Of a stretch of DNA of 32,000 nt, positions 430 to 20,450 are shown piece after piece. The notes beneath the pieces were generated by a model. It was given only the letters and a program-made list of their open reading frames with translations, had not been told where the DNA came from and did no database searches. A program made the translations under genes and the position numbers. This DNA comes from Pseudomonas sp. LS1212. GTDB lineage: Bacteria; Pseudomonadota; Gammaproteobacteria; Pseudomonadales; Pseudomonadaceae. Location of the stretch: contig NZ_CP102951.1 in assembly GCF_024741815.1 (NCBI RefSeq), positions 2,551,115-2,583,114 of the forward strand, read 5' to 3'. Every line of letters begins with the position of its first letter. Position 1 is the stretch's first letter.

Positions 430-576
430 GACTTCTCCGTTCTATTGACGGCTGTGCTCGGTCAATGCATATGTGCCCCAGGTGCCCCGGAAAACTACGC
501 AAAACGTCGGAGCGCACCAGGTCGGAATGTGTAAGCCCCATGATTGCTGGCACTAATGGGCTGAGAGCACTGGCCT

Positions 577-2727: not shown

Positions 2728-2776
2728 AGGCGGCTTGCAGCGGCGTGAAGCCTGTTGCTCCTCGTTGTTTCCCTAT

Positions 2777-2810
2777 AGCGCCAAGGCTGACTGCCTTGGC
2801 GCTTCTTTAT
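2777..2810 (+). terminator. Rho-independent terminator after the oxidoreductase gene
   Basis: Perfect 11-bp stem AGCGCCAAGGC / GCCTTGGCGCT with loop TGACT, followed by TCTTTAT. Confidence 0.7.
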
Positions 2811-6274: not shown

Positions 6275-6734
6275 GCAAAATCCGAGGCCTCGAATCGTTC
6301 CATTTTTGAGACTCTTCAGCTCAGTCTGGCGACTACCGAAGGCAAAATTCAGGAACTACTGTGTATCTCCCGCCCCATTGGCGCCGACATTCAGTCGCAC
6401 CGATGGAACACTGGAGAGGGCGCAGGCCTGAGCTTATCGACCGCCTGCCCTCGCTGATACACGAGGAGATGGAAATGAGCGCTTCCGTTAACGCAGCGTA
6501 TGAATCCCCTACAGGCCACGTGGATAGCGGGTTTCAGCGGATCGTGTCATTCGTCGTACCACGGACAGATACCACGGTTCGGCACAGGGCTTGCAGCGAT
6601 GCAGGCCCTTGGCGTTTCGGGTCGGGGTTACGTTGGGGTCACGACACCGCTTCGATCAAGCGCACGATATCGGGCTGCCCTCGGTGTTCGGCCTGCCACA
6701 AATCATAGGCCGCCTGCATGGCCACTGGCGCACA

Positions 6735-6766
6735 ACAAAAAAGCCCCCACCGCTTCGATGGGGGCG
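6735..6766 (-). terminator. Rho-independent terminator after isochorismatase paralog A
   Basis: On the minus strand: GCCCCCA-tcgaagcgg-TGGGGGC followed by TTTTTTG, about 15 nt after the stop at 6782. Confidence 0.7.
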
Positions 6767-6781
6767 ATACAGCGGATACGA

Positions 6782-7462
6782 TTACTTGCGCTGTGAATCA
6801 AGCACTTCCTTGTTATTCACCACATCTTGCGCCTTCATGTAACTTTCGATCAGCAGTTGGTAGGCCGGGAAAATTTTGGTGTAAACCTCAGCCCATTGCT
6901 GAGCATCGTCTCGGTTCCAGGTTTTTTGCAGCTCAGAAGCGACTGCGCCCGTATCCATCGGTACTACACCAGCCTGGACCACACGAGCGAGCGTAATTTC
7001 CTGCGCCATCTTGGTGTAGGTGCCCGAGGCATCCACCACGACGAAGACCTGATAACCGTCATGGACGGCGCTGATGGCGGGGAAGGCCATGCACACGCTG
7101 GTGATGGTGCCGGCAATGATAAGTTGCTTCTTGCCAGTGGCTTTCACTGCGGCCACGAAATCCGGATTGTCCCAGGCATTGATCTCACCCTTGCGCGCCA
7201 CGTACTGGGCGTGAGGAGCATTTTCATGAATCTCGGGGATCAGGGGGCCGTTCGGGCCTTGCGGTACGGAGGCAGTGGTGATGACCGGAATCTTGGCTAG
7301 CGTTGCCATCTTGGCCAGTGCCGCAGCGCGCAGGCGTAGCTCGGGCATCGGCATATCGCCCACTGTCTGGAACAGACCACTCTGGTGATCGATCAGCAGC
7401 ATGACGGCGTTGGATGGGTCAATGGCAGGTCTCTGGTTGTTAAAGTTAGCAGGCGTGCTCAT
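6782..7462 (-). CDS. Isochorismatase-family (cysteine hydrolase, YcaC-like) protein, paralog A
   Basis: 226 aa. Contains [60 protein letters not shown] (catalytic Cys context) and VVVDASG. A strong GAGGAGAG SD lies upstream. Confidence 0.9.
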
Positions 7463-7715
7463 GGGGACTCTCCTCGGATGGGATGGCGACGATCAGGCCG
7501 CCGAAAAAACCCTCATAGCGTCATGACGCCATGAAGGAACTCAATGGGCGATTTGTCCAAAGCGCCCGCTGTTGAAATCGTTGATCGCCTGAACGATCTC
7601 GTCTTGCGTGTTCATGACGAAGGGGCACACCAACACGTAGGCTACAATCACAGGGCGCCGATTTCCCATTTGCAGGGGCGCTCGCCAAGTACCTGCTAAG
7701 TGTGGAGATACCAAA

Positions 7716-7886
7716 ATGCTCATCGCCATCATCATCGACCAAGAAAGCCTAGACGCATTTGTCCATCCTGCCCTTGACCTTGTGAGCGGGTGCCTCATCG
7801 AACTGGAAGCACCAGTGCAACTGGAGTTGTTCCCTACGCAAAATCTGCCGCAGCATAGCCCTGCGATTGATCCGGATTTCACCTAG
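7716..7886 (+). pseudogene. Displaced chromosomal 5' fragment of isochorismatase paralog B (56-codon ORF running into the island end)
   Basis: The ORF ends ..ELFPTQNLPQHSPAIDPDFT*. The segment PTQNLPQHSPAIDP aligns with the N-termini of paralog A ([14 protein letters not shown]) and paralog B ([13 protein letters not shown]). Homology stops at the 12-bp repeat, and a stop follows 3 codons later. The true original start codon is uncertain. Confidence 0.35.
7864..7875 (+). repeat. Candidate attL core (CGATTGATCCGG)
   Basis: Exact 12-nt direct repeat of 18634-18645. It lies 8 nt from the stop of the last island gene. In both copies it encodes the IDP of an isochorismatase N-terminus. Confidence 0.55.
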
Positions 7887-8524
7887 CGCGGTTTCCGGAA
7901 GCGTTGCCCATTGATCGTGATCGACGGTGCCGGGCTGGGCCGGACAGGACCGGGGCCACACTGCTCGGCACTCGAACCAACGTAGTTTGTCAGGTTGGCT
8001 TCCTTGGTCTGCCGAATCAGTCTCTGGTCGGCGCGCTCTTCATCGGTCAGTGGTAGCTCACTGGCCCAACGTTCGCGCTCGGGGTCAGGCATGGGTTCAG
8101 GGGGTAGCAAGGGCATGGCATCAGGACGCTGCCAGTGCGGGTCACAGGCTTGCTGCGGTGTCGGCTGGACATCGATGGCGGGCTCTTGGTCCTTGCGCGC
8201 GTACGCGGCTTTGGACAAAGCGAAAGCAATCCTGCGAGCGGCTTCAAATTCAGTGTCGATGTTGATCTGCACATTGGTCTGGATATCGACGGCATCATCG
8301 CGTGCCATCGGCGGCATCAACCGCGACAGGCAGTCGCGGATGAAGGCTTCGGGTTTGGTCTTGGCGTAGTCGAGGAGAAAGGCTGCACCGCCCATGGCTT
8401 GGTACACCGCCAAGATGTCATTGGCGATTTCGCCGCCGATTAATTGCCGCTGGTTTTTATCCAAGCTGCCTTTAACCCTGCCGCCAGATTTGACGCAACC
8501 GGGTTTTCGACCACGGGTTGCCAT
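7883..8524 (-). CDS. Hypothetical protein; tentatively small-terminase-like (function uncertain)
   Basis: 213 aa. The basic Gly-rich N-terminus MATRGRKPGCVKSGGRVKGSLDKNQ followed by ..FLLDYAKTKPEAFIRDCLSRLMPP resembles N-termini I associate with phage TerS proteins. It is the last gene before the att core. Its start abuts the upstream stop (TAAATG). The gene call is solid; the product call is weak. Confidence 0.55.
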   Translation of the reverse strand: MATRGRKPGCVKSGGRVKGSLDKNQRQLIGGEIANDILAVYQAMGGAAFLLDYAKTKPEAFIRDCLSRLMPPMARDDAVDIQTNVQINIDTEFEAARRIAFALSKAAYARKDQEPAIDVQPTPQQACDPHWQRPDAMPLLPPEPMPDPERERWASELPLTDEERADQRLIRQTKEANLTNYVGSSAEQCGPGPVRPSPAPSITINGQRFRKPR

Positions 8525-8707
8525 TTATTCCACCGCCTCATCCAGTGTCACATCCATCCATTGCAGCTTGCCGGTGGTGTCGTATTTGAACCCTGCCTTG
8601 CCAGAACTGGGCGGCTGCTCGGGCTGCTCTTTTAGCCATTCAGCGAGCGCCATGACCAGTACGCGGGCTTCGGCTACGGGATCGCCGTCAAAAGTAAGGG
8701 TTGCCAT
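8525..8707 (-). CDS. Hypothetical small protein (60 aa)
   Basis: GGAGA SD 7 nt upstream of the ATG. The stop abuts the next gene's start. No recognisable motif. Confidence 0.6.
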   Translation of the reverse strand: MATLTFDGDPVAEARVLVMALAEWLKEQPEQPPSSGKAGFKYDTTGKLQWMDVTLDEAVE

Positions 8708-8718
8708 TGCTCGATCTC

Positions 8719-9237
8719 CTATTGCGGTATACCCAACTGGTAAGGGTTCGGTCCAGCGTCAGGGGTAGGCGGTGGCACTGTGGGCGGTCTGATTTCCTTC
8801 ATGCCAATGACTTTACCGGCACCGTCGCGGACGGCTTGCAATACCGCACCGTTGTTGTATTTCACCTGAAAAATCTGCCCCGCCGAATCGCGGACGAACT
8901 GCATTTCGGGAACGAGTCTGGGCCCGGCGCCAGCGTTGGCTGGCGTGGGCGGTAGTGGAGCCGGTGCATTGAATTCCCGCATCATCCGTTCCGTATGGGA
9001 CGATTGTTCCCGCTGCCTTTCCAGTTCTTTAGCAATACGCTCCGCCACACTTGCATCGATTAATTGCTGGATAGCCGTACCCAAACCCGAAACGTCCACA
9101 GGATCGGGGGCTTTATCCGGTAGCTCGATGCCGAGTTGCCGCGCCCGGTACAACAGGCGGCCGAGCGCGGGATGCGTACTTGCAGGCGCTGGTTCTTCCT
9201 TTCGCGGGGGCGGGGGCCGATTAAGGATATTGCTCAT
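8719..9237 (-). CDS. Hypothetical protein, Pro-rich termini (172 aa)
   Basis: The start overlaps the upstream stop (ATGA). Pro-rich segments (RPPPPRKEEPAP, PPTVPPPTPDAGPNP) flank a helical middle and a beta-like C-terminal region (QFVRDSAGQIFQVKYNNGAVLQAVRDGAGKVIGMKEI). No family recognised. Confidence 0.7.
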   Translation of the reverse strand: MSNILNRPPPPRKEEPAPASTHPALGRLLYRARQLGIELPDKAPDPVDVSGLGTAIQQLIDASVAERIAKELERQREQSSHTERMMREFNAPAPLPPTPANAGAGPRLVPEMQFVRDSAGQIFQVKYNNGAVLQAVRDGAGKVIGMKEIRPPTVPPPTPDAGPNPYQLGIPQ

Positions 9238-9419
9238 TTCAGTCGCGCCTGTGCAATCAAACCGCGCAGTTTGATTTCCTGCCCGCCGTGCAAAAACGGA
9301 AGGTTTAGCAAATCGTTAAATTTACGGATGAGTGTTTCGTCGCCACCGGCTGCCACCAACTCATCGCGGACTTGGCGACCTTCAAGGCAAAGGGGATGTG
9401 AAGCGGAAATGTTGTCCAT
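9234..9419 (-). CDS. Hypothetical small protein (61 aa)
   Basis: GAGGT SD 8 nt upstream. ATGA overlap with the downstream gene. Confidence 0.6.
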   Translation of the reverse strand: MDNISASHPLCLEGRQVRDELVAAGGDETLIRKFNDLLNLPFLHGGQEIKLRGLIAQARLK

Positions 9420-9430
9420 GATTTTAACCT

Positions 9431-9811
9431 CTATATAAATTCACTTAGCCCAAGTTTTAAAACGCGGTTACTGCTTTGGGCCACAGCCGCGCCCGTCGTC
9501 GTTATACTCGTTAGCTTCAGCAGTTGAAGGCCAGCGAACTGGGCTGGGTCAAAGGCGACGACTCGATTAGCCGCTGCCTGAAAAACCAGAAAATCACCAG
9601 CGCTATTGCGCACCGGGAAAAAGCTGGTACTGCCATCCACATTGGTTTCAAAGCCAATACCAGCCGAGTCCCATGCCGTGGACATTTGAACGCAGCTAAG
9701 GGTCAGCCCGGTAACGTTGACGCTATCACTAACGCCAGATGCGGCTGTGGAAAGCGTCACCGTGGCAAATGTGCGGCTGGATGGTTTGGGGCGGATGGGT
9801 CTGGTTGCCAT
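9431..9811 (-). CDS. Hypothetical beta-rich protein (126 aa), possibly virion-associated
   Basis: Strong GAGGTG SD. The Ser/Thr/Val/Gly-rich composition with alternating pattern (TFATVTLSTAASGVSDSVNVTGLTLSCVQMS..) suggests a beta-sandwich. The function is inferred only from context. Confidence 0.65.
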   Translation of the reverse strand: MATRPIRPKPSSRTFATVTLSTAASGVSDSVNVTGLTLSCVQMSTAWDSAGIGFETNVDGSTSFFPVRNSAGDFLVFQAAANRVVAFDPAQFAGLQLLKLTSITTTGAAVAQSSNRVLKLGLSEFI

Positions 9812-9814
9812 GAT

Positions 9815-10738
9815 TCACCTCTTATCCCGAGCATCAATCAATACGCGATATCTCGCTTGCAGTTGCGGGTCAGCGAGATATTTTTTACGCTCGGTCTTCA
9901 TCACGTTTTCGATTGCAGCGATCTCTTGGGCAATCGCACCGCCTGACGTGGGCAGGGAACCACTACCGATGGCGCTGTTAAACAAATGTTCGAGCACTTC
10001 CACACTGTTCAACATTGACCCTTGATTGCTGATCTGGCTCAAGTGCGCCTGATCCTTGGCCGGGAGATTGTTCAAATATTCCTGCGCCACTTGCAGATTC
10101 GATTCGTAGGAAGTGCCCCAACGCTTGCGCAAGGTGATTTCTGTATTCAGCTTGAGGCGTTCGTTACGCCGGTCGAGTTCGCGCCATTCGCCATCGGTCA
10201 ACTGATCCTCATAAGAAGGGGGTGCGCTTCCTTGCGCCGGAGCACTGCCTCCAACTTGTTGCGCATTAATCCGTCGCGTCGCCTCCGACACCCACCAGCA
10301 GCAGTCCTGAACCATCTTCGCGCTAAAGTTGTGGTCGTGGGCGAAATCGGCGAAGGCTTGGAAAATCGGGTCGGACTTATGCTCGAAAAGGTTATAGCGG
10401 TGGCGTTGCCGTTGTGGCCGTGGCGGATTAGCGAGTGCATCCTGATACCATTGAATGGCTTGCTGGATATGCCGCGCATTGTGCTGAAGCTGGGAAAAAT
10501 CCGAGAGAAAAACAGCACTCAGCTGTCCGATTGCGGCCTGCACTTGTTGGGCAGTTACACCGGGGGGGGCTGCTTGCCCAAAGATCGTTTGGCCGCCTTG
10601 AAAGTCGGCAACCTCCCTTGGTGACAACAGGTCAACGTCGGTTGTTCCCCACGAATCAGGTTGTATGGGCGCCAGCGGGGACGGTGCGACAGGCGCTAGC
10701 TCGCCGCCGCTATCATAAAGCTCAATGTCAGTGCTCAT
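9815..10738 (-). CDS. Hypothetical protein (307 aa), Gln-rich and helical; scaffold-like by composition only
   Basis: ATGA overlap with the upstream gene. It has a long predicted helical region and a basic C-terminal helix (..IAAIENVMKTERKKYLADPQLQARYRVLIDARDKR). No family recognised. Confidence 0.7.
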   Translation of the reverse strand: MSTDIELYDSGGELAPVAPSPLAPIQPDSWGTTDVDLLSPREVADFQGGQTIFGQAAPPGVTAQQVQAAIGQLSAVFLSDFSQLQHNARHIQQAIQWYQDALANPPRPQRQRHRYNLFEHKSDPIFQAFADFAHDHNFSAKMVQDCCWWVSEATRRINAQQVGGSAPAQGSAPPSYEDQLTDGEWRELDRRNERLKLNTEITLRKRWGTSYESNLQVAQEYLNNLPAKDQAHLSQISNQGSMLNSVEVLEHLFNSAIGSGSLPTSGGAIAQEIAAIENVMKTERKKYLADPQLQARYRVLIDARDKR

Positions 10739-11166
10739 AGTAATTCAGCCTTCAGTTTCTGTAGCTTGACTAGCCGCAATTCCTCACGCAAAAGCCTTAG
10801 CGGCTTCCGGCAAAGCGAGTGGACGTTTTGCCCTTCGACCCACTCGCCGTTGTCGTCAAGCTCAGGCACCAGATCAAGCTCGACCTCTTCGTACAAGTTG
10901 CAGAACTGGCAGGTGTGCGCCCCCCAGACATAGCGGGGGAGTTTTTTCACGGTTAAATCGACGACGCGGATGTAGGGGTCGAAGTGAGAGTAAAACAGGG
11001 CAATGCCCATACCAAGGAGCACATAGCGGAAATGCGTGCTTTGAATCGTCACCAGCGCGTCCTTGGCTTTGACGGCGCGCAGGAATTGTTTTGGCGAGTA
11101 CATTCCGGTCTTGCCTTTGAAGCGGGCGACGATTATGTGTAAGAGTTCGGTTTCTGCTGCGGTCAT
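10735..11166 (-). CDS. Hypothetical protein with C-terminal CxxC-x26-HxxC motif (paralog of the upstream gene)
   Basis: 143 aa. Motif: ..HTCQFCNLYEEVELDLVPELDDNGEWVEGQNVHSLCRKP... ATGA overlaps at both ends. Confidence 0.7.
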   Translation of the reverse strand: MTAAETELLHIIVARFKGKTGMYSPKQFLRAVKAKDALVTIQSTHFRYVLLGMGIALFYSHFDPYIRVVDLTVKKLPRYVWGAHTCQFCNLYEEVELDLVPELDDNGEWVEGQNVHSLCRKPLRLLREELRLVKLQKLKAELL

Positions 11167-11636
11167 GACTTAGCCCTCGCCACAAGGTCGCGCATCAAGC
11201 CCCAAGGTCTGGAGCATTGCCGGTGGAGCATGACACCGGGGATCGGGTTATTATAAATGTCCAGTTCTGGTTTTAATGCCTCCATGACTCCACGTTCATC
11301 TTGAAGGCAATAAGCACAGCAGTCAGGGCTGGGTGGCCGTTTAGCCAATAAGCGTTTGGCTACTTCAGGATCAGCAGTAACTGCCAAGCAGATCAAACGC
11401 CATGATTGAGTTCTATCTGCTGATCGCCACAGTGCAGTTTCGTAAGTCACTTCTAATGTCCGTTGGGTTTCTTCCTTGCGTATAAATACGCTGATCTGGT
11501 CGGCATCTGGCGCAGCCTCACCAATAGAGTAAGCTATTAATTCTATTAGCTTTTCCAGACTGCCACGGAAGGCAATGTAAAACTTTGCGCAATAGGCGGT
11601 ATGGGCGAGCACTATCAGTTGATCTTCAAGTTTCAT
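11163..11636 (-). CDS. Hypothetical protein with C-terminal CxxC-x27-HxxC motif
   Basis: 157 aa. Motif: ..DCCAYCLQDERGVMEALKPELDIYNNPIPGVMLHRQCSRP... The start lies 6 nt after the upstream stop. Confidence 0.7.
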   Translation of the reverse strand: MKLEDQLIVLAHTAYCAKFYIAFRGSLEKLIELIAYSIGEAAPDADQISVFIRKEETQRTLEVTYETALWRSADRTQSWRLICLAVTADPEVAKRLLAKRPPSPDCCAYCLQDERGVMEALKPELDIYNNPIPGVMLHRQCSRPWGLMRDLVARAKS

Positions 11637-11642
11637 GGTCGA

Positions 11643-12122
11643 TCACCGCAGCGTTGCTGAATCTAACAGTTCGGCTAATGCAGCATCGCGGGAAGGTTTA
11701 CCGCGTACCATCATTACATTGTCAGCCAGTCGCGTTACACACCACTGGCACTCCTGATCTGGCCCTCGGTAGTCAATTGAAAAGCCGGGTGGAAGGCCTT
11801 CAGTGCTGGTGAGAAGTGCTGGTAATGGATAGAAGTGCAGTAACTGCATAGTGCAAAACCCGCGTCCGGCATCGACCACTAACAGTTCGGCATAGCCGCT
11901 GCGATCTTCATAAATCACGTTGACTCTATCGAAGGGTCTGAATTGATCGGATACCACACTCCAAAGCCCTGATTGCAGCAGCCTTTCCTTTGAAGTGTTG
12001 CGCGGCACCACTGCGGACCAAACGTTGTTCCGGCTCTCGTTGAACGTAATAGCGCTGCGGTACAACGGGATGATCTTTTCCGCTGGGGCTTCTGCGGTTT
12101 CAGTGCTGGGGCTGTTGGCCAT
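11643..12122 (-). CDS. Hypothetical protein (159 aa)
   Basis: Start chosen at MANSPSTE (ATG 12122, GGAGA SD 8 nt upstream) rather than the ORF-track start at 12170. No recognisable motif. Confidence 0.7.
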   Translation of the reverse strand: MANSPSTETAEAPAEKIIPLYRSAITFNESRNNVWSAVVPRNTSKERLLQSGLWSVVSDQFRPFDRVNVIYEDRSGYAELLVVDAGRGFCTMQLLHFYPLPALLTSTEGLPPGFSIDYRGPDQECQWCVTRLADNVMMVRGKPSRDAALAELLDSATLR

Positions 12123-12204
12123 GTTGGGTATCTCCAAAGTCAGGTGTATTTGGTATTTTGACTTCAGCATGAACCGGCATGGCAGCAGATGTGCGGCTTG
12201 TTAG

Positions 12205-12603
12205 TTAGAACCCTTTAAACTCATAGGCAACTCGACGAACGGTTTGGATATCCGGTGCGTCAAGCCCATTCAGTTCATAAAACTTCATCAGGATACTGGT
12301 CCAGCCACAGCGGTTTTTGTCTACAAGTGCAGCCCGCTTTCTGCGAATCACGTCTTCGATGTGCGCCTCGATCAAGGCAGTGCGGAAGTCACGGGCAAGC
12401 CGGGCCTTCCTGTTGCCAATGGCCTGGAGTCGCTGGAGTTCCACCTGCGCCCGCTGCCAAGCCAATAGAGGCGCACGGGCCTCGTCGGAGCAGAGTTCCA
12501 TCTGCCTGTCCAAACCCCACTCAACCAGTAAAGACAGGGCTTTCTGGTCGCCCTTCTGCGCCTTGTCGATCAGGCGACGAATTTCAGTGTGTGTCAGTTT
12601 CAC
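12205..12603 (-). CDS. Hypothetical protein (132 aa), possible regulator
   Basis: Start chosen at GTG 12603, preceded by GAGGAGG 5 nt upstream. The N-terminus THTEIRRLIDKAQKGDQKALSLLVEW resembles the opening helix of sigma-70 region 2 / ECF sigma factors, but the protein is too short to be a full sigma factor. Confidence 0.65.
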   Translation of the reverse strand: MKLTHTEIRRLIDKAQKGDQKALSLLVEWGLDRQMELCSDEARAPLLAWQRAQVELQRLQAIGNRKARLARDFRTALIEAHIEDVIRRKRAALVDKNRCGWTSILMKFYELNGLDAPDIQTVRRVAYEFKGF

Positions 12604-13074
12604 ATCTACCTCCTCAAGCCCCAAGCGGGCAGCAGGATCATTTCTGGGCGCCTTTCTCTATCTAGGAGCTAGGGGTAGTAGCGCTCACCATGTTGTTGCG
12701 TCTCTTAGCGCATCCTGCGAGGTCGGCCACCTAAACCCTTACGTCTTTCCGATATAAAAAAACAGCTTTCACATAACCGTCTATGGGGGTTTTCAGGCCT
12801 CCATGTAGCCCGGTTGTAACCCCATCGGCACCGAACCGCTCTACCACAGGGTTTTTATGGCCGGAATCAGCGGATCAAAGATCCGTTTAGGGGTTCTTTC
12901 AGGTCATGGTGGACCTGTTTCGAGTGCCCGCGTTCCGCTGTATATCCATCCATCATTTACCCTCTCTTCGTGGTAGGAATCAGCCCTGTTACCACAACCA
13001 TCATTCACCGCGTCCAGTGTTTATAGGCTTGTCTGCCTTCAGATGCGCTGCTTGGAGAGCAGGCATATGTGTTT

Positions 13075-13449
13075 TTAGAGCCCGCAATGACGCCGCATGA
13101 ACTCCAAGGCGTCGTCCACCTGCTCGATGGTCACTTCACACAACAGGTTGACGTGCCTATGCAGAAAAAACGCTCGCTGCGAGTGAGGCATCCGCCGCAA
13201 CTGCGGCGCAAGCGCGACAGCCGTACGGGTTATGACGGCAAGGTTGGGGAACTCGGGACGCGGGTTGAACAAATGGTTTTCTTCGCACCGGGCACGCACA
13301 AAAGCTTGATGCATATCGTCGGGGGCGTCATTTCTCAAGTAAGTCACCCCATCCATAAAGTCTCCGCCCGGTTTGTCCGTTAAAGCTTTAAGTGCTTCGT
13401 ATAATTTTCCGCTCATAAAGCTGCCTACCTTGGGCGTTCGGCCCGTCAT
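13075..13449 (-). CDS. Hypothetical protein (124 aa; alternative start at 13416)
   Basis: Open frame with coding-like composition. The internal ATG at 13416 has a better SD (AAGGTAGG). No motif recognised. Confidence 0.6.
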   Translation of the reverse strand: MTGRTPKVGSFMSGKLYEALKALTDKPGGDFMDGVTYLRNDAPDDMHQAFVRARCEENHLFNPRPEFPNLAVITRTAVALAPQLRRMPHSQRAFFLHRHVNLLCEVTIEQVDDALEFMRRHCGL

Positions 13450-13469
13450 AACGGTAATCTGCTAATTTT

Positions 13470-13775
13470 CTATTTCTCTATGTCCGCCTTACTGTTTTCA
13501 CTACTAGCGCGCAATAACCGCATTAGCAATTGCGCAACAGTTTCACCCGGCAGGCGTGCAGCTAATAAAGCCTCTGCATCTGCCATATCCAGATATGCGG
13601 CAATGCGTTTTTGTCCTAGTGCTTTACGGCGCAGGCGGAATACACGCTGCTTGCGGGCGTTCCGGTTCACCGTCCCCTTCAACTCGACCCATCCCTGTTG
13701 CAACAAACGGTCAAGGTCGCCGGGGCCGACTTCTCGGCATTGGCTCGGGTGCGCCAGCTTTGTTCCTGTTTTCAT
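13470..13775 (-). CDS. Hypothetical basic protein (101 aa) adjacent to the iteron block
   Basis: Start at ATG 13775 with GGAGGT 5 nt upstream; the ORF-track start at 13871 would read through the iterons. It has an Arg/Lys-rich centre (NRNARKQRVFRLRRKALGQKR), which suggests possible DNA binding. Confidence 0.65.
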   Translation of the reverse strand: MKTGTKLAHPSQCREVGPGDLDRLLQQGWVELKGTVNRNARKQRVFRLRRKALGQKRIAAYLDMADAEALLAARLPGETVAQLLMRLLRASSENSKADIEK

Positions 13776-13786
13776 CACTACCTCCA

Positions 13787-14102
13787 GCGTTCCCGCGTTC
13801 CCGTGCGTTCCCGCCTGTTCCGGGAACGCGCAAACCCTTGTGCAGCAAGGCCCCGTGGCACATTTTTTCACGCGTTCCGGGGGGGTATCGCGTGCACATC
13901 CAAAAAAAACCTTTTTTAAAAATTGTCACCTTTGAAAAAATCCTCCACGCGTGGATGTACGGGAACATATATTTTTTTTACCATTCCAAGGCTCTAGCCT
14001 GTGGCTTTGCGCGTTCCGGGAACGCGCCGGAACAGCCTTGGCGAAAAAGCCCACCAGCCGCTCTAGCCCGTGGCTTCCAGCGTTCCCGACCGTTCCGGAA
14101 CG
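13787..14102. repeat. Iteron array flanking an AT-rich tract: candidate replication origin of the island
   Basis: GCGTTCCC occurs at 13787, 13795, 13805 and 14080. GCGTTCCG occurs at 13872. An inverted GGGAACGC is at 13822. The palindrome GCGCGTTCC-G-GGAACGCGC spans 14009-14027, and the palindrome CGTTCCGGAACG spans 14091-14102. An 18-nt repeat GCTCTAGCC(T/C)GTGGCTT(T/C) occurs at 13991 and 14060. A/T tracts lie at 13902-13940 and 13966-13981. The block sits immediately 3' of the replicase gene. Confidence 0.6.
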
Positions 14103-14112
14103 CCCTATCGCC

Positions 14113-16761
14113 CTATTCAGACAGCCGCACCGCTGGAATGCCCTGATCTGCGGCCCTGTGTTCGATGGCCGTGGTGTCCGTGAGGTAGATCAAGGCTTCG
14201 ACAAAGGTCTTGCTGTTCAACATCTTGGCGCGCCTTAGAAGCACCGAACGCGGCACCCAACCGGCCTTGAGGGCGTCATCTTCCGCAGTCCGCAGGGGCG
14301 TGAACTGGCCTTCCTTGAGAAAGCCCACCAGCATGGCGGCGTTGGCCTGTGTCTCACCGCAGTGCATGTAGTCCCCGACGAAGGCCAGAATCGTCGCATC
14401 GGAGGCCCGCACGAAGGCAGCCGCCCATGCCACGTGTTCCATCGTGATGACGGGGTAAACGTGGTTGTCGTAAACCGCCAACACTCCCGCGATCCGTTCA
14501 GCCTTCTCGTAGCTGCGCACATGCAGGGCCTTGGCGAAAGGCGAGCAGGTGGACAGGCCACGTTGATGGAACTCTTCCAGCAGGGCATCGAGGGCCTGAT
14601 CGGCCTCGTCGCTGATCGTGATCAAGGTTTCTTTTTTATCGGCGGCAAAGTCCCCCGCCACCGTCTCCATCCTGAGCATGGCGGTCTTGGCCACGTCGGG
14701 CATGTGGATCGGCTTCAGCGAGCGCCGGGGTTTAGGGTCGCTCCTGCTTTGCACGAACAAGTCCCGACCCAGCAGTCCATCCGCGATGTTATCCAGTTTG
14801 AGGGCTTCCCCCAGCTTTTCCGGGGTGGCGAAGCCAAGCAAGGACACCGCTGGATGCTGGATGAGGCGCCCCTTCGCCCCGACTTTGGTGCGGGTCGGGT
14901 AGCTGCCGCTGGATGCCGAGAACAGCGACAGCAGGATCCCGGCCAGTTCAACCATCCACGGCTGTGCCCCTTTCCCGGTCATGTTGCAGAAGAAATGCGC
15001 GACCTCATCGATTGCAATCAGCAGACCCCGGTAGTCTTCGAGGAGTTCTTCCAGTCCCTGCCCTGACGCCATTCGCCCTTTGACTTCCGCACCGGCCTGC
15101 CCAGCCAGTGCCATGGCGGCCCTGAGTGGAATGTCCTTGCCCGCGCCGGTCACGGCAATGCCACAACCATAAAGGTTACAGCGCGCACCGTTGGGCAGGG
15201 CGAAGTAGCCCCCACAGCCAGAGGCCATGGCAATGAGGGTCGCCAGTGTAGTCAGTTCGACCTGTGGCTTGTGGGCGCCCTCTAGCACCGCATTGACGGC
15301 ACCTTCCATCACACCCCGGAAGGGCATCGGGAATCGGATAGCGGGTGCTGGCTTCTTGCTGGATTTCACCGGGGTGTCGAAGCAGCCCTGATCATCGCGC
15401 GGGCCAGTCCAACTCTCGGCGTAGGCTTTCTTGACTTCCCGTTCTGCGAATTTCATCGCCTCTTCTTCGTTACGCCTTTTGCTGGTGCAGTAAGCCCATA
15501 AGCCCGGCGTATGCAGGACCGTGGTCAACACATCGGCCAATGCTGCCCCACCGTCAATCAACTTATTCAGCAGACCGTACATGACCTCGGAACGCTGGCC
15601 TTCCGGCAAGGTGCCCTCGACCAAAGCCTGCTGATCGGTTGACAGGCCGATCAGGGGGAGTGGACTGCCATTGGTGGCTATGGGGGTCGGCATGATCGTC
15701 TTGGCCGTGGCCTTGACCTTGGCCGTAGGCTTTGCCGTATCGACTTGTGACAGGAAGGCGAAGGCGTCCGGGCCGTAGGTCTTGTCGTTCTGTTCCAACA
15801 GGGCCGCAGGCACAACTACGCGGCCTTTCTTCAGTTTGCTTGCAGTAGGCAGGTTGAGGGTGCCGGGTAGCCGCATGATGCGGCAGATGTCGTGGCAGTG
15901 GTCGCTGCCCAAGGCCAGCTCCAGCCGCTTGTTGATCGACTCCAGCTCGTCGGTGTTGCTGCCATCGTGTAGGATCGGCTCCTTCAGCCGGTAGAAGATC
16001 CCCAGACCATTGCCACTATCGACCACTTCGCTGGGCACGGGCAGACCCCCGTCTGCGATCAACTGCCGCGCCGTCAGCTTCCATGCCGCGTGTGCCTCTG
16101 GCGTCAACGCCTCCTTCGGCGGATCGTGATCGATGTGGTGATAACACAACGCGGCAATGTCGGCCTTACTAGCCTTCTTGCCAGGATCACGGATCAACGG
16201 GTTCACGGCAAAATACAGGTTCGCCTTGCCGTTGTGCTGCTTGATGAATGGAAGCAGTTCGTCGATCTGGTCGGGATGCACAGCCTTCGCCGTGATGGGC
16301 CCGTCCGGCACGATGGCGACCAGTTGCACGTACCAGTCAGGTAGCCAGCCTTGGCGGTGCCCCTTCAGAAAGCCAAGCGGTTGCTCGGCAGGGCCGCCCG
16401 TACCTTCCAACTGCGGTTGATCTTGGGTCAGGCAACCCGGCGTACTAGTGGGCTCCCTCTCGGGGATCAGGGCCCGCACTTCACCCAGCCGCCGGTTAAA
16501 CCCGGCATCGTCCTTGCCCTCAAGGTCGCACAGCTGCTTAAGCCCGAATTCCGTCAAGAGTGCTCGTGCTACGTCTCTGTCCGCGCGGATCAGTCTCTCA
16601 AAGCGCCAAACGGTGCGCAGCGAAATCTTCCTCGCACTCGCGGGGGTGCACTCGACCGGCGCTTGCCCGGTGTCGAGTTCGGTACTACGATCAGGTTGTG
16701 CGTTTCCCTTGGCCCCCTGCGCCGGTTCATCCCCGGCCTCGGGGTTTTCTTTTGCGTCCAT
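14113..16761 (-). CDS. Replicase: AEP-type primase-polymerase domain fused to a DUF3987-like P-loop ATPase (helicase-like)
   Basis: 882 aa. AEP-like motifs: LYFAVNP, HHIDHD (DxD), SGNGLGIFY and RLPGTLN. In the C-terminal half, AVTGAGKD is Walker-A-like and LLIAIDEV is Walker-B-like, as in YfjI/DUF3987 proteins of CP4-57-type elements. The start is 2 nt after the alpA stop. Confidence 0.85.
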   Translation of the reverse strand: MDAKENPEAGDEPAQGAKGNAQPDRSTELDTGQAPVECTPASARKISLRTVWRFERLIRADRDVARALLTEFGLKQLCDLEGKDDAGFNRRLGEVRALIPEREPTSTPGCLTQDQPQLEGTGGPAEQPLGFLKGHRQGWLPDWYVQLVAIVPDGPITAKAVHPDQIDELLPFIKQHNGKANLYFAVNPLIRDPGKKASKADIAALCYHHIDHDPPKEALTPEAHAAWKLTARQLIADGGLPVPSEVVDSGNGLGIFYRLKEPILHDGSNTDELESINKRLELALGSDHCHDICRIMRLPGTLNLPTASKLKKGRVVVPAALLEQNDKTYGPDAFAFLSQVDTAKPTAKVKATAKTIMPTPIATNGSPLPLIGLSTDQQALVEGTLPEGQRSEVMYGLLNKLIDGGAALADVLTTVLHTPGLWAYCTSKRRNEEEAMKFAEREVKKAYAESWTGPRDDQGCFDTPVKSSKKPAPAIRFPMPFRGVMEGAVNAVLEGAHKPQVELTTLATLIAMASGCGGYFALPNGARCNLYGCGIAVTGAGKDIPLRAAMALAGQAGAEVKGRMASGQGLEELLEDYRGLLIAIDEVAHFFCNMTGKGAQPWMVELAGILLSLFSASSGSYPTRTKVGAKGRLIQHPAVSLLGFATPEKLGEALKLDNIADGLLGRDLFVQSRSDPKPRRSLKPIHMPDVAKTAMLRMETVAGDFAADKKETLITISDEADQALDALLEEFHQRGLSTCSPFAKALHVRSYEKAERIAGVLAVYDNHVYPVITMEHVAWAAAFVRASDATILAFVGDYMHCGETQANAAMLVGFLKEGQFTPLRTAEDDALKAGWVPRSVLLRRAKMLNSKTFVEALIYLTDTTAIEHRAADQGIPAVRLSE

Positions 16762-16763
16762 GG

Positions 16764-17060
16764 TTATGCCCCCTCACTCAGCAGGGCACGCTTGGCTGCC
16801 TTGGCGGCAACGGCTTTTGCGGCATTGGCGTCCTGTTCGGTCCTGACGTAGCAGGCAGCGAGAACGGCGCGAATGTCGGCCACCCGCCAGCCGACCGAAC
16901 GCGGGGCGATTTGCAGGGCTTTAGGGTAGATGCCGTCCTTGATCCCGTTCCACCATGAGGCGCGGGAGATGCCGACAAGGGCAATGACGACGGGCAGGCG
17001 GACGATTGCCGAATTAGGCAGGTCGTCGAAGTTCTTGATGGGATCGAAAGCAGTAGCCAC
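16764..17060 (-). CDS. alpA: AlpA-family phage regulatory protein / excisionase-like HTH
   Basis: IVRLPVVIALVGISRASWWNGIKDGIYPKALQIAPRSVGWRVADIRAVL matches the AlpA/Xis-type MerR-like HTH pattern (..LRLPEV...G.SRST.Y......FP.P..LG.R.VGW...EI..W.). GTG start with AGGAGG 9 nt upstream. Confidence 0.85.
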   Translation of the reverse strand: MATAFDPIKNFDDLPNSAIVRLPVVIALVGISRASWWNGIKDGIYPKALQIAPRSVGWRVADIRAVLAACYVRTEQDANAAKAVAAKAAKRALLSEGA

Positions 17061-17091
17061 GACGGCACTCCTCCTGATTTAAGGGAAAGAA

Positions 17092-17116
17092 TGCCTGTCT
17101 CCAGAAACTGCCTGTC
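17092..17116. promoter_or_regulatory. Direct repeat TGCCTGTC x2 in the int-alpA intergenic region (candidate operator)
   Basis: TGCCTGTC occurs at 17092-17099 and 17109-17116 (17-bp period), 32-56 nt upstream of the alpA start. Confidence 0.3.
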
Positions 17117-17219
17117 ACAGCTGACGCCACAGACGTGGATCGGCTTTTAACAAACCCCGGATGGGGAGGATGCCGTACCAATTACTTGAATGAATTTATA
17201 GTCCCTTGGATTTTGCTGG

Positions 17220-18434
17220 TCAAGGGTGGCACTCACGTGCTACAAGCAAACCGCACACGTAGTCGGCCCAGTGGTTCATCAGGCGTCGTCTTTCGGGCAG
17301 ATAGCGGGCCTTGTTGTAGACGCCTCTTACGCCACCAGCGATGTGAGCCAACTGCGCTTCGATGGCATCGGCATCGAACATCTGCTGATCACCCTCGCGG
17401 GCTTCATTCAGGTAGGTCGAAGCAATGTGCCGGAATCCGTGTACCGTTTGTTTACCGCCGTAACCTAAAAACTTCAGCGCATTTAATAGCGAATTACTGG
17501 AAATACCTTTTTGCTTTCCGCGCCCTGGCAGAATGAATTTGCTGGTGGGATGCATGGCTTTCAATTCATGCAAAATGTCCACCACTGGCGGACTCAGTGG
17601 CACCAATAGCGGCTTGTCTTTTTTCATCCTTTCACTGGGGATTTCCCACAACAGATTTTTAAAATCGAATTCGCTCCATTCGGCCTGGAGCAATTCGTTT
17701 GCCCTTGTGAAAACCAATATGACCAATTGCAACGCCAACCGGGTTTCGCGGAACTTGTACGTAGCGATTTTCTTGACCAGTTCGGGAAATTCTTTCTGGC
17801 TGACATGCGCCCGGTTTTTCGTTTTGGGGATCTTCAATGCCCCTTCGCGGCCTACGGCCACGTTGTGCACCAGCCTCCCGTTGTTGATGGCGAAGTCGAG
17901 AATGGCGCGGATGCTACCCAATAGCCGAAAGGCGAATGCGGTAGCCCCCGTGGCCTGGACCTTTTTGAGTACGGTGATAATGTCCGGCGCCTCGATTGCT
18001 GTGACCGGCATCGTGCCCAGGAGGGGGAAGGCATGGGTCTCCAAGGCGCTCCAGACGTTGCGGGCATACTTGGTGGACCATAGGTGTGCCCGGCTCTCGT
18101 ACCATTCCTTGGCGAAGGCTGAGAAGGTATCAGCCTTGGCCTGCCTGTCATCGCGGACCTGCTGTTGCTTCACCAAGGACGGGTCCTTGCCCGCCTTCAA
18201 TGTCTCGCGCATGCCATCGGCTTTCTTGCGGGCTTGGGCAAGGCTGGTGGCCGGATAGGCACCGAGGCCCAACAGCTTTTCCTTGCCGTCGATGTAGTAC
18301 CTGAACCGCCAGTACTTGGCGCCGGTAGCAAAGACCCACAGGTATACGCCATCGCCGTCGCTGAGCTTGAGGATCTTCTGCCCGTCAGGGCAGGTAGCGT
18401 TCCGGCATTTCACATCAGTCAGCTTCGTGGTCAT
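17220..18434 (-). CDS. int: Tyrosine-type site-specific integrase, P4/CP4-57-like (DUF4102 N-terminal domain)
   Basis: The N-terminus MTTKLTDVKCRNA..KILKLSDGDGVYLWVFATGAKYWRFRYYIDGKEKLLGLGAYPATSLAQARKKA is the typical P4-integrase arm-binding domain. The catalytic region has FTRANELLQAEW (Arg), HGFRHIAST (HxxR) and VRGVYNKARY (Tyr). The ATG at 18434 is preferred over the GTG at 18476. Confidence 0.95.
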   Translation of the reverse strand: MTTKLTDVKCRNATCPDGQKILKLSDGDGVYLWVFATGAKYWRFRYYIDGKEKLLGLGAYPATSLAQARKKADGMRETLKAGKDPSLVKQQQVRDDRQAKADTFSAFAKEWYESRAHLWSTKYARNVWSALETHAFPLLGTMPVTAIEAPDIITVLKKVQATGATAFAFRLLGSIRAILDFAINNGRLVHNVAVGREGALKIPKTKNRAHVSQKEFPELVKKIATYKFRETRLALQLVILVFTRANELLQAEWSEFDFKNLLWEIPSERMKKDKPLLVPLSPPVVDILHELKAMHPTSKFILPGRGKQKGISSNSLLNALKFLGYGGKQTVHGFRHIASTYLNEAREGDQQMFDADAIEAQLAHIAGGVRGVYNKARYLPERRRLMNHWADYVCGLLVARECHP

Positions 18435-18450
18435 GGCGGCAGCCCTTTCT

Positions 18451-18496
18451 GTGGTATCTGCCTCAATTAATACCACGGTCGCCTGTGAGATACCAC
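18451..18496. promoter_or_regulatory. Inverted repeat GTGGTATCT ... AGATACCAC upstream of int
   Basis: 9-bp arms at 18451-18459 and 18488-18496, with a related TACCAC at 18471-18476. It abuts the int SD, so it could be an operator or a recombinase arm site. Confidence 0.35.
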
Positions 18497-18521
18497 TAGA
18501 TTCAACTGGATTACCCTAGAC

Positions 18522-18563
18522 ACTAAAAAGGGCTGTAACCCAGCAGCGGCAAGGGTTGCAGCC
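18522..18563 (-). terminator. Intrinsic terminator-like hairpin (minus strand) between attR and int
   Basis: On the minus strand: GGCTGCAACCC-(11-nt loop)-GGGTTACAGCC (11-bp stem, one mismatch), followed by CTTTTTA. Confidence 0.45.
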
Positions 18564-18633
18564 GTCTAGCTCAAGCGTTCATGGGCTACTTCGACTGTCG
18601 TTAATGCAGCCAACTTCAATGGCCAAAAGCCAA

Positions 18634-18645
18634 CGATTGATCCGG
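18634..18645 (+). repeat. Candidate attR core (CGATTGATCCGG)
   Basis: Exact direct repeat of 7864-7875. It lies inside the N-terminal coding homology of isochorismatase paralog B (..KPTIDPADT..). Confidence 0.55.
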
Positions 18646-18656
18646 CCGACACGGCC

Positions 18657-19277
18657 ATGTTGCTGATCGACCATCAAAGTGGCTTGTTCCAGATCGTGAA
18701 GGATATTGAGGTCCCGCAACTTCGAGCGAATGCAATTGCCCTGGCCAAGGCCGCCAGGCTGTTGAACATCCCTGTCATTACCACCGCCTCCGTACCGCAG
18801 GGCCCGAATGGCCCGTTGATTCCCGAGATCCAGGAAGCCGCGCCGCATGCGCAGTACGTTGCCCGTCGCGGTGAAATCAATGCCTGGGACAACCCCGAAT
18901 TTGTCGCGGCCGTAGAAGCCACCGGCAAGAAAACCCTGGTGATCGCCGGCACCTTGACCAGCGTCTGCCTGGCATTCCCCTCCATCAGTGCAGTGCACGC
19001 CGGCTACAAGGTGTTCGCCGTGGTCGATGCCAGCGGCAACCATTCGAAACTGGCCACTGAGCTGACCATTGCGCGCCTGGCGCAGGCTGGCGCGGTGCCG
19101 ATCGACATCATGGCGACCCTCTCGGAACTGCAAGGTTCGTGGAACCGGCCAGATGCGCAGGAGTGGGCTAAGGTCTATACCCAGGCCATGCCTCACTACC
19201 AGTTGCTCATCGAAAGTTACATCAAGGCTCAGGAGGTCGCGAACAACCACGAAGAGCTTGATTCGCAACGTAAATAA
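18657..19277 (+). CDS. Isochorismatase-family protein, paralog B (integration target; native 5' end disrupted)
   Basis: 206 aa from the first in-frame ATG, highly similar by eye to paralog A. In-frame homology extends upstream to ~18585 ([24 protein letters not shown]) with no in-frame start. The ATG at 18581 is one base out of frame (ATGGGCT). Confidence 0.8.
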
Positions 19278-19352
19278 GCGCTGTCCAACCGGGTGAAACC
19301 GATCCGTTTCGATGGGCGCCAGACGGTTCCCATGACCTAAAGGAGAATGAAA

Positions 19353-19979
19353 ATGTCCACAGCCTACAAACGTCTCGACAAGGATCAAGCGGCCGTATTG
19401 TTGGTCGATCACCAGACCGGCCTGCTGTCGCTGGTTCGCGATATCGAGCCGGACAAGTTCAAGAACAACGTGTTGGCATTGGCCGACCTTGCCAAGTACT
19501 TCAAGCTGCCGACCATTCTGACCACCAGTTTCGAGAACGGCCCGAACGGTCCGCTGGTACCGGAGTTGAAGGCACAGTTCCCTGATGCGCCGTACATCGC
19601 CCGGCCGGGCCAGATCAATGCCTGGGATAACGAAGATTTCGTCAAGGCGATCAAGGCGACCGGCAAGAAACAATTGATCATCGCGGGCGTCGTCACCGAG
19701 GTGTGCGTGGCGTTCCCGGCGCTGTCGGCGATCGAGGCGGGCTACGACGTATTCGTGGTGACCGACGCCTCGGGCACCTTCAATGAAATCACCCGGCATT
19801 CGGCCTGGAACCGCATGTCCGAAGCCGGTGCACAGCTGATGACCTGGTTCGGCCTGGCCTGCGAACTGCATCGCGACTGGCGCAACGATGTGGAAGGGTT
19901 GGGCACGCTGTTCTCCAACCACATTCCGGATTACCGCAACCTGATCACCAGCTACAGCACACTGACCGCAGGCAAGTAA
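19353..19979 (+). CDS. ycaC: Isochorismatase-family hydrolase YcaC
   Basis: Close to E. coli YcaC along its full length as I recall it (..AAVLLVDHQTGLLSLVRDIEPDKFKNNVLALADLAKYFKLPTILTTSFENGPNGPLVPELKAQFPDAPYIARPGQINAWDNEDFVKA..). The ATG at 19353 has AGGAG 7 nt upstream. Confidence 0.9.
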   Translation: MSTAYKRLDKDQAAVLLVDHQTGLLSLVRDIEPDKFKNNVLALADLAKYFKLPTILTTSFENGPNGPLVPELKAQFPDAPYIARPGQINAWDNEDFVKAIKATGKKQLIIAGVVTEVCVAFPALSAIEAGYDVFVVTDASGTFNEITRHSAWNRMSEAGAQLMTWFGLACELHRDWRNDVEGLGTLFSNHIPDYRNLITSYSTLTAGK

Positions 19980-20034
19980 AACGCTCGTCAGGGGCTGGTC
20001 GGTTGATCAGCCTTTGACGCAAAGGAGTGAGTTC

Positions 20035-20439
20035 ATGAGTGGGTCCATTGTTCGAGCGGTACAGGACGGCATCCCTTATCAAGTGGAGCTGAGCGATGGC
20101 GTGCATCAATGGCTGGCAGACGAAAGTGCTCAATTGGGCGGCAAGGATTCGGGCCCCAATCCTCATCAACTGTTGTTGTCGGCGCTCGGCGCCTGCACTG
20201 CCATCACCTTGGCCATGTATGCCCAGCGCAAGGAAATCCCGCTCAAGGGCATCGATGTACAATTGAGTATCCTCAAGGAAGAAGGGCGACCTGAAGTCCA
20301 TACCGAGATATCGCGCTCGATTACCTTGAACGGGGACCTCGACGACAAGCAGCGCCAGCGTTTGCTGGAGGTCGCCAACGTCTGCCCGCTGCACAAGCTG
20401 CTGAGCGGGACTATCCGGATCGACAGCCAACTGACCTGA
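20035..20439 (+). CDS. OsmC/Ohr-family peroxiredoxin-like protein
   Basis: GGKDSGPNPHQLLLSALGACTAITLAMYAQRK .. VANVCPLHKLL shows the two conserved Cys contexts of OsmC. AAGGAG SD upstream of the ATG at 20035. Confidence 0.85.
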   Translation: MSGSIVRAVQDGIPYQVELSDGVHQWLADESAQLGGKDSGPNPHQLLLSALGACTAITLAMYAQRKEIPLKGIDVQLSILKEEGRPEVHTEISRSITLNGDLDDKQRQRLLEVANVCPLHKLLSGTIRIDSQLT

Positions 20440-20450
20440 AAGAACAGACC

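Follow-up and report, generated by a model that had tools for sequence, protein, structure and literature searches.

A ~10.8-kb island in the genome of Pseudomonas sp. LS1212 is probably an integrative, helper-dependent phage satellite that has the layout of a phage-inducible chromosomal island (PICI) and belongs to a so far undescribed family, recognised by its conserved hijack operon of about nine genes. The island occupies positions 7864-18645 of the stretch of DNA analysed here (32,000 nt of contig NZ_CP102951.1, positions 2,551,115 to 2,583,114; hereafter the window, to which all coordinates refer unless a related contig is named). This largely Pseudomonas-borne family may well be a parasite of uncultured podophages resembling BPP-1, with an operon drawn from copies of the helper's scaffold, small terminase subunit (TerS) tail, jelly-roll and head-accessory genes plus zinc-module proteins, and would then combine scaffolding and TerS mimicry in the style of the Staphylococcus aureus pathogenicity islands (SaPIs) in a Gram-negative host. 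We favour a satellite because of the narrow size of the islands, the three copies in LS1212, the homologs of phage head and packaging genes, the absence of major capsid protein (MCP), portal, large terminase subunit (TerL), tail and lysis genes, and the PICI-like origin.

Fifteen open reading frames (ORFs), all on the minus strand, fill the island from 7883 to 18476 in the order P4-type integrase, AlpA, DUF3987 primase, iteron/AT-rich origin and 12 packed distal ORFs, with several neighbours in the distal part overlapping by 4 nt or abutting (10735/10738, 11163/11166, 9234/9237, 8524/8525). Exact 12-bp direct repeats stand at both ends (7864-7875 and 18634-18645). Searches of Pfam, NCBIfam and PHROGs matched none of the 12 distal ORFs to a capsid, portal, tail, TerL, lysis, relaxase or type IV secretion system (T4SS) family. 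An initial annotation, made from the sequence and without database searches, had described the co-oriented ORFs with phage-style packing, the exact terminal repeats and the lack of these gene classes, and all three descriptions hold. The distal ORFs gave no Pfam match at E<=0.01, no NCBIfam match at the curated cut-off (a single match was at noise level), and two PHROG matches, both to families of unknown function (the 175-aa protein to phrog_26742 and the 307-aa protein to phrog_3742). Ten of them were compared with PADLOC-DB 2.0, with no match to a known anti-phage defence system. GenBank phages and PLSDB plasmids gave no megablast match to the island as a whole, and GenBank phages none in tblastn to the 307-, 175- and 126-aa proteins; a Rfam scan of the island returned no RNA family and no C4-type RNA, and a promoter scan no sigma-70 consensus. 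The 307-aa protein is NVV94_12135 of LS1212. Because two further paralogs (74% and 54% identical) are encoded on the same 5.69-Mb replicon, this one genome holds three related islands. Neither the primase nor the flanking genes, the two LS1212 island paralogs or the ycaC paralog to the left of the island had an entry in exact-protein look-ups, and no empty insertion site was recovered.

The family was followed in eight related islands, read from two Logan contigs (L001 and L032), a JGI metagenome (L002), IMG/VR (L005) and four Pseudomonas genomes (L006-L009); the genome scan used a strict peptide pattern and yielded these four loci only. All eight keep a collinear operon that encodes, in order, proteins of ~101 aa, 139 aa or another product, 175 aa, 157 aa, a variable slot, 307 aa, 126 aa or an alternative, 61 aa, 172 aa, 60 aa and 213 aa. 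Integrase, excisionase and replicase are swapped between members, and the replicases are of the DUF3987, the Prim-Pol plus DUF5906 or the AAA_25 type. Attachment (att) sites differ as well. L007 (12.1 kb) ends in a 49-bp repeat of the 3´ part of tRNA-Met, L009 adjoins tRNA-Ser, and L006 has a 13-bp repeat that lies inside an ORF, such that removal of the island restores an uninterrupted sensor-kinase ORF of 1132 codons. The contigs L001 and L032 begin and end within the 3´ half of tRNA-Met, with terminal overlaps of 12 and 10 nt. It was considered whether these ~12-kb Logan contigs are circular episomes, and this was rejected: overlaps of 10-12 nt are the outcome of assembly at k=31 with att repeats of ~48-50 bp. 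For the same reason, contigs that carry the family of the 307-aa protein cluster at 11.5-13.8 kb. Relatives with delimited ends measure 12.1-12.4 kb, as against 10.8 kb for the island in the window.

The operon thus stays collinear while integrase, excisionase, replicase and att site are exchanged within a narrow range of sizes, which makes it the conserved core of an integrative element under a size constraint. Judged from these sequences, the family is defined by its distal operon, and the int-alpA-primase backbone is exchangeable. The initial annotation had described the island by that backbone; across the relatives it is the variable part of the family, not its signature. L006 (13129-14932) and L007 (12977-15098) have additional ORFs, 2-2.3 kb in all, where the last operon gene is separated from the distal att repeat, a region that is likely a cargo slot. 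The island in the window has no such cargo, with 7 nt from the last stop codon to the repeat. On L005 (10664-12640), tRNA-Leu comes after the related island, and with it a second ORF of 401 aa in integrase position, an arrangement that suggests a tandem array of integrative elements.

The phage connection comes from a podophage lineage seen in metagenome and IMG/VR contigs only (L010, IMG/VR L013, L016-L018, L024-L026; ~49-55 kb). The head and packaging genes of this lineage begin with TerS (phrog_309, 6.6e-40), a homolog of the 126-aa island protein, two genes of unknown function and TerL (44% identical to that of Acidovorax phage AP1 and 42% to that of BPP-1). Two small genes, the portal (PF12236), a Bbp19-like protein of 88 aa, a ~308-aa protein in scaffold position between portal and MCP (phrog_3742, 2.9e-39) and the MCP itself (Phage_capsid_2, 1.3e-22) follow, and after these a post-capsid protein of 113-119 aa (phrog_18004), a ~159-aa protein (phrog_26742, 7e-33) and a tail protein (phrog_394). 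TerS, TerL, portal, MCP and tail protein together establish that these contigs are phage genomes, and the order of the head module mirrors that of BPP-1. Four genes of the window, those for the 307-, 213-, 175- and 126-aa proteins, have homologs in the terS-terL or portal-capsid modules. Sister islands add two more: a product encoded in the slot after the 307-aa gene is 43% identical to the phage post-capsid protein, and a protein of L006 is 74% identical to the Bbp19-like protein. Directly upstream of terS, L010 also carries a sugar-biosynthesis cluster (430-9535; NeuB, CTP_transf_3, a DegT aminotransferase, an epimerase and an acetyltransferase), which looks like a phage-encoded pathway of the nonulosonic-acid type.

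The 307-aa protein (9815..10738) is a candidate capsid-size-determining alternative scaffold. Homology to the phage protein in scaffold position extends over its residues ~121-307 (hhalign 98.9%, E 2e-17, over the C-terminal 161 columns; tblastn against the phage loci 1.5e-13), and its N-terminal ~120 residues are unrelated to it. Both proteins match phrog_3742, the island protein at 4.7e-5. The AlphaFold2 (AF2) model (mean predicted local distance difference test, pLDDT, of 78) contains helices only, with residues 1-49 disordered; it has no match among PDB folds. The protein is likened to phage scaffolds because it is predicted to be all-helical with a disordered N-terminus. The 175-aa protein (11643..12170) has its homolog in a head-module protein of the phages, whose gene follows that for the small post-capsid protein and precedes that for the first tail protein (phrog_26742 at 1.4e-14; tblastn against the phage loci 1e-9 to 2e-10). 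It and the 307-aa protein are just 25-34% identical to their phage homologs. The gene for the 175-aa protein also contains a 19-bp tandem repeat in 2.1 copies (11812-11851).

The 126-aa protein (9431..9811), a candidate virion or packaging accessory protein, is much closer to the phages, being 55-67% identical to the product of the gene between terS and terL. It has more than 200 homologs, several of them on contigs of 50-60 kb. Its AF2 model is all-beta and a confident jelly-roll (pLDDT 87.5, predicted template modelling score, pTM, 0.78). Foldseek aligns this model with uncharacterised Caudovirales proteins in BFVD (TM 0.84, E 5e-10); in the PDB it finds weak, generic jelly-roll matches only, among them the cement protein of BPP-1 (3j4u_H, E 0.019). 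The 213-aa protein (7883..8524), encoded by the last operon gene in all eight islands, is a candidate chimeric mimic of TerS. Its N-terminal domain (residues 1-75) is basic; the segment in common with TerS (~84-114, EAARRIAFALSKA) comes next, and a Pro-rich linker leads to a C-terminal motif that is conserved. An hhalign comparison of its family profile with that of phage TerS gave 95.6% with E 1.2e-8, and 96.6% with E 6e-10 when 40 sequences are used. It forms 136 clusters at 50% identity among 1.84 billion representatives and has no Pfam match. Profiles of the 213- and 126-aa proteins found no match among PDB sequences.

In the cycle that we propose, a helper phage would infect or be induced, the candidate being the uncultured podophage lineage of ~50-55 kb with the head-gene order of BPP-1. 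AlpA and the integrase would excise the island, the DUF3987 primase/helicase would fire the adjacent iteron origin, and the distal operon would subvert helper morphogenesis. By analogy with P22 gp8 and 80alpha gp46/CpmB, coat binding would be expected at the C-terminal end of the scaffold, and CpmB of SaPIs redirects the helper coat protein into small capsids. One possibility is that the 307-aa protein competes as an alternative scaffold through the shared C-terminal two thirds, upon which the helper coat would form small capsids for 11-12 kb of DNA. Helper TerL is steered to satellite DNA by TerS in SaPIs or by Rpp in Escherichia coli PICIs. The 213-aa protein, with a TerS segment on a different DNA-binding N-terminus, could replace TerS or co-assemble with it, and helper TerL would then package island DNA; the shared segment would be the means by which the protein delivers this DNA to TerL or reprogrammes the TerS of the helper. 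The 126-aa jelly-roll and the 175-aa protein would be forms, adapted to the satellite, of accessory proteins for the helper head or for packaging, and the CCHC proteins and a small protein resembling ribbon-helix-helix (RHH) regulators would serve in regulation. Islands of 10.8-12.4 kb and helper genomes of ~49-55 kb stand in a ratio of 0.2-0.25. As a speculation, for a helper capsid of T=7 such a ratio would suit T=3 capsids, or T=4 capsids that hold two copies of the island.

A replicative, helper-dependent satellite with a hijack operon was also what the initial annotation had proposed, and the conserved family operon and the four head and packaging homologs now lend this comparative support. 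A number of observations weigh against it. The homologies, the synteny, the family, the att sites of the relatives and the origin-like repeats are seen directly, whereas every functional step, namely excision, replication, helper induction and packaging, and helper dependence with them, is one that we infer from sequence. No pac or cos site was identified in the island, and no DNA motif common to island intergenic regions and phage loci was found. The phage protein in scaffold position has no similarity to Bbp18 of BPP-1, and its family, phrog_3742, is annotated as 'unknown'. The similarity between the 213-aa protein and TerS is confined to a segment of 31-36 columns (EAARRVAFALSKA) in the C-terminal part of TerS, and the phage counterparts of the 126-aa protein are uncharacterised too. 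About half of the operon genes (those for the 101-, 61-, 172-, 60-, 157- and 139-aa proteins) have no homolog in the phage segments compared.

The ends of the island add to these points. Between the last stop codon of the island and the left copy of the repeat, CGATTGATCCGG, there are 7 nt, and this copy is a candidate attL core. The right copy falls within the codons T-I-D-P-A of a YcaC-type gene of the isochorismatase family, ~158 bp upstream of int. This gene (18581..19277, plus strand) adjoins the int end and is the presumed target. CGATTGATCCGG is the sole exact match of at least 10 nt between the two boundary zones, and the chance of such a 12-bp match is roughly 0.005 for two zones of 300 bp. 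Within 6500-20500, 31 12-mers recur, which weakens CGATTGATCCGG as an att core. Native-looking 5´ coding sequence of ycaC, matching orthologs that are 88-93% identical, is found on the island side of the right repeat: these orthologs begin MS(T), and the residues that follow are also encoded island-ward of the repeat; blastn homology to the orthologous loci starts at 18602. The ATG at 18581 is followed by 7 extra nt (GGCTACT) relative to the orthologs, so that the first ~25 codons are frameshifted and the first in-frame start is the ATG at 18657. The 5´ end at 18581 is either that of a pseudogene or an imperfect, island-borne copy of the 5´ end of the target. A local-alignment shuffle test found no significant similarity between the left flank and the 5´ region of ycaC, and the idea that the left flank is a diverged copy of that region, which came from a MAFFT alignment, was dropped for this reason. 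The ycaC-like sequence may have come with the attP arm, if this includes a copy of the 5´ end of the target; alternatively, the left flank may have been rearranged later, or the crossover core may be a sequence other than the 12-bp repeat.

CGATTGATCCGG is thus real and well placed, and in this island it is to be regarded as a candidate att core only; the exact repeat of the initial annotation stands, and its status as an att site is weaker than had been stated. Indirect support comes from L006, where the integrase is 39% identical to that of the window and the 13-bp repeat lies at a distance of 174 bp from its gene, and from GTGGTA motifs that the two islands share. In the window, GTGGTAT occurs three times with 20-bp spacing at the 5´ end of int (18451..18496), and these are candidate arm-type integrase binding sites. 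L006 repeats the GTGGTA arrangement with 20-bp spacing beside int and also has it near the distal att site.

An unlikely alternative is that the island interferes with phages and is not packaged by them: its phage-derived proteins would be dominant-negative decoys that poison the matching podophage, and it would spread by other means or not at all. A paralog of a scaffold, a mimic of the TerS tail and a jelly-roll protein are compatible with decoy functions, the missing pac or cos site would be expected, and interference with the helper has been described for known satellites (PMC6092414). However, a replicase and an origin of its own are not needed for pure defence. The tight size of 12.1-12.4 kb (10.8 kb here) in spite of differing integrases and replicases, the presence of three copies in one genome and the lack of a match between the ten distal ORFs compared and any PADLOC defence model also argue against it.

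It is less probable still that the island is an integrative mobilisable element (IME), or an integrated plasmid-like replicon, that is moved by conjugation and whose operon encodes unrecognised mobilisation functions. An int-alpA-replicase backbone is common to IMEs such as PIMEs, and many of the ORFs are of unknown function. Against this, Pfam, NCBIfam and PHROGs gave no match to a relaxase, TraJ, TrbJ/TrbL, type IV coupling protein or T4SS, and those homologs that can be recognised belong to phage heads and packaging, with no conjugation gene among them. The hallmarks of PIMEs (int, alpA and replicase with trbJ and trbL, with or without traJ/traI; bioRxiv 10.64898/2026.01.12.698999) are absent, and membership in that group was rejected as the same databases returned no conjugation-related match. 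That the island is a decayed prophage of the same podophage lineage, with which it has head and packaging genes in common, is very improbable, considering that all ORFs are intact, that the operon is collinear in at least nine islands from different species with a gene order unlike that of the phage, that the 307- and 175-aa proteins are at 25-34% identity and the 307- and 213-aa proteins carry novel domains, that no fragment of MCP, portal, TerL or tail is seen, that replication and integration depend on modules of a kind typical for islands, and that the att sites of the relatives are precise. Conjugation proteins and prophage remnants were findings that the initial annotation had named as speaking against a satellite; the in silico searches found neither among the distal ORFs.

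For the backbone, the annotation of the individual genes was largely confirmed. The P4-type tyrosine integrase (17220..18476, with a likely true start at ATG 18434) matches Arm-DNA-bind_3 (1e-25), Phage_int_M (1.6e-23) and Phage_integrase (3.4e-13) in Pfam, and a helix-turn-helix (HTH) protein of the AlpA family (16764..17060; PF05930, 3.5e-10) would be an excisionase or activator; BLASTP to Int and Vis of P4 agrees with both assignments. The 882-aa replicase (14113..16761) has a C-terminal half of the DUF3987/D5-type helicase class (DUF3987 at residues 568-785, 3e-12) and corresponds to phrog_3022, 'DNA primase' (1.6e-46). Its N-terminal half had been called a primase-polymerase of the archaeo-eukaryotic primase (AEP) type. 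DUF3987 is well matched, whereas the AEP assignment is weaker: Pfam did not detect Prim-Pol in this half, and the resemblance consists of weak PHROG matches (phrog_2478, 'DNA polymerase/primase', 2.4e-5, residues 140-306; phrog_1829, 2e-4) and of motifs recognised by eye, HIDHD (DxD), SGNGLG (SGxG) and RLPGTLN (RLPGT-like). The 882-aa protein found no match among PDB sequences; its residues 118-453 are 57% identical to the replicase of L006.

Directly 3´ of the primase stop codon follow 337 bp of non-coding DNA (13776..14112) that form a candidate replication origin, with two blocks of CGGGAACGC-type iterons and the palindrome CGCGTTCCCGGAACGCG around an AT-rich tract of ~90 bp. Ten of the 24 matches to CGGGAACGC in the window (<=1 mismatch), including six of the seven exact ones, fall within 13787-14103. 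The iteron blocks flank the tract at 13900-13990, where the GC content is 33-37%. The iteron/AT-rich block reported earlier at this position is thus confirmed by motif counts and base composition.

PICIs are recognised by an integrase, a regulator (alpA in Gram-negatives), pri/rep and an origin immediately 3´ of the replicase (PMC6092414). The island resembles the Gram-negative PICIs EcCICFT073 and PmCI172 (PMC6092414) in the order int-alpA-pri/rep, in the iteron/AT-rich origin 3´ of the replicase, in a size of ~10-15 kb without structural or lysis genes, in a presumed distal packaging/morphogenesis module and in the occurrence of more than one island per genome. It differs from them in that their helper is a lambdoid siphophage, whereas its host is Pseudomonas and its candidate helper a podophage, and in that its family is defined by the hijack operon, with int, alpA and rep swapped among members. 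The packaging and capsid-morphogenesis genes known from PICIs (terS, cpm/ccm, rpp, ppi) found no PHROG, Pfam or NCBIfam match; there is only the TerS similarity of ~35 columns. As to the att sites of a PICI, 12-bp repeats are present at both ends, yet sequence like the native 5´ end of ycaC lies on the island side; the repeats of L006 and L007 are clear. By the logic of SatelliteFinder, the island is at most a 'Type C' PICI (int, AlpA and primase), the class that its authors discard as unreliable.

SaPIs are said to hijack their helpers with CpmB as an alternative scaffold and with a TerS of their own. The island is similar in that one of its proteins has a C-terminal part in common with the helper scaffold, and another is TerS-like and would act together with helper TerL. 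In contrast to SaPIs, it has no sequence relationship to CpmA, CpmB or SaPI TerS, its 213-aa protein has a TerS segment of ~35 residues and is not a full TerS homolog, and regulation would be by AlpA, with no Stl-type repressor seen in the island.

The core of P4-like elements in SatelliteFinder comprises psu, delta, sid, alpA, epsilon, alpha and int (PMC10085698). The integrase is 35.5% identical to Int of P4 (NC_001609; BLASTP, E 5e-70) and AlpA is 25% identical to Vis (E 1e-8). A size of ~11 kb, a large primase-helicase with iteron origins and the concept of a size-determining protein with accessory capsid proteins are further likenesses. The P4-class label of the initial annotation fits Int and AlpA/Vis but not the remainder: the proteins of the window and of seven related islands gave no BLASTP match to Sid, Psu or Epsilon at E<=1, and a single match to Delta (E 0.06 over 13 residues) that is noise; a cI-region homolog was not found either. 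The replicase of the window had no BLASTP match to P4 alpha, and those of L001 and L005 match it weakly. Moreover, the 307-aa protein is related to a gene in the position of an internal scaffold and not to the external Sid lattice, and P4-like elements are enterobacterial, whereas the island resides in Pseudomonas. No gene of the kind found in cfPICIs (major capsid, portal, protease, head-tail connectors, terL) was detected in the island. PICMIs of Vibrionaceae (PMC10803314) and marine VEIMEs (PMC9618062) are likewise small int-alpA-primase satellites with few recognisable genes that were discovered through genomics or viromics; PICMIs are described as lacking capsid-remodelling genes, which sets them apart from a family with homologs of a scaffold and of head-module proteins. 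The Pseudomonas AH14b satellite (PMC4936722) is part of the phage collection and was not matched by the 307-, 175- and 126-aa proteins of the island in tblastn. The literature searched contains no description of the island family or of a small Pseudomonas satellite of this type.

Of the remaining genes of the distal operon, the first (13470..13775), conserved in all islands, encodes ~101 aa with a C-terminus that resembles RHH by eye and is a candidate regulator. Its start is probably the ATG at 13775 (101 aa) rather than the GTG at 13871, because the upstream part overlaps the iterons. Next comes a 124-aa ORF (13075..13449) that is unique to this island, with no homolog in the related islands and no family match. 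It is followed by a non-coding gap of 450 bp (12625..13074), a possible regulatory region or late promoter, in which GTGGTA occurs three times (12842, 12970, 12990). GTGGTA is also present in the equivalent gap of L006 (7980, 7994). At an internal promoter, such copies may serve as binding sites for Int, for AlpA or for a different regulator. The C-terminal half of the 139-aa protein (12205..12624) is conserved in two other islands. The 157-aa protein (11163..11636) has a CCHC zinc module, in which C107, C110, H and C141 and a PW..MR..VAR tail are conserved in seven islands; it has no match in Pfam or PHROGs and may be a regulator. The neighbouring 143-aa protein (10735..11166), encoded in the variable slot of the family, shares its C-terminal CxxC...HxxC module. 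Further downstream, a 61-aa protein (9234..9419) is conserved in seven islands, a Pro-rich protein of 172 aa (8719..9237) in eight and a 60-aa protein (8525..8707) in six, the latter two with no family match.

Three YcaC-type paralogs surround the island (6782-7462, minus strand; 18581-19277 and 19347-19979, plus strand). The first two are inverted copies that flank it with ~72% nucleotide identity; orthologous loci have just the tandem ycaC pair, then pirin. Between the end of the island and the left paralog lies a hairpin that resembles an intrinsic terminator (7510-7537, minus strand; 12-bp stem and T run), directly after a 24-codon ORF (7541-7615) with a resemblance to a SnoaL-like N-terminus. 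Elsewhere in the window, a 513-aa ORF (3330-4871, plus strand) has no Pfam match and coincides with a patch of low GC content (~0.51, with ~0.60 around it).

In conclusion, few families of phage satellites are known, with a bias towards enterobacteria, staphylococci and vibrios. The family described here would be one in which satellites are recognisable by modules for hijacking that derive from the helper, even where int, alpA and rep are interchangeable. Detectors of the SatelliteFinder type would discard such islands as 'Type C', because they are keyed on int, alpA and rep. It would also provide a biological context for five unannotated protein families, including phrog_3742, phrog_26742 and phrog_18004. 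A candidate helper can be identified from the shared genes, and this makes the prediction of the helper, the redirection of capsid size and the mimicry of the TerS tail testable.

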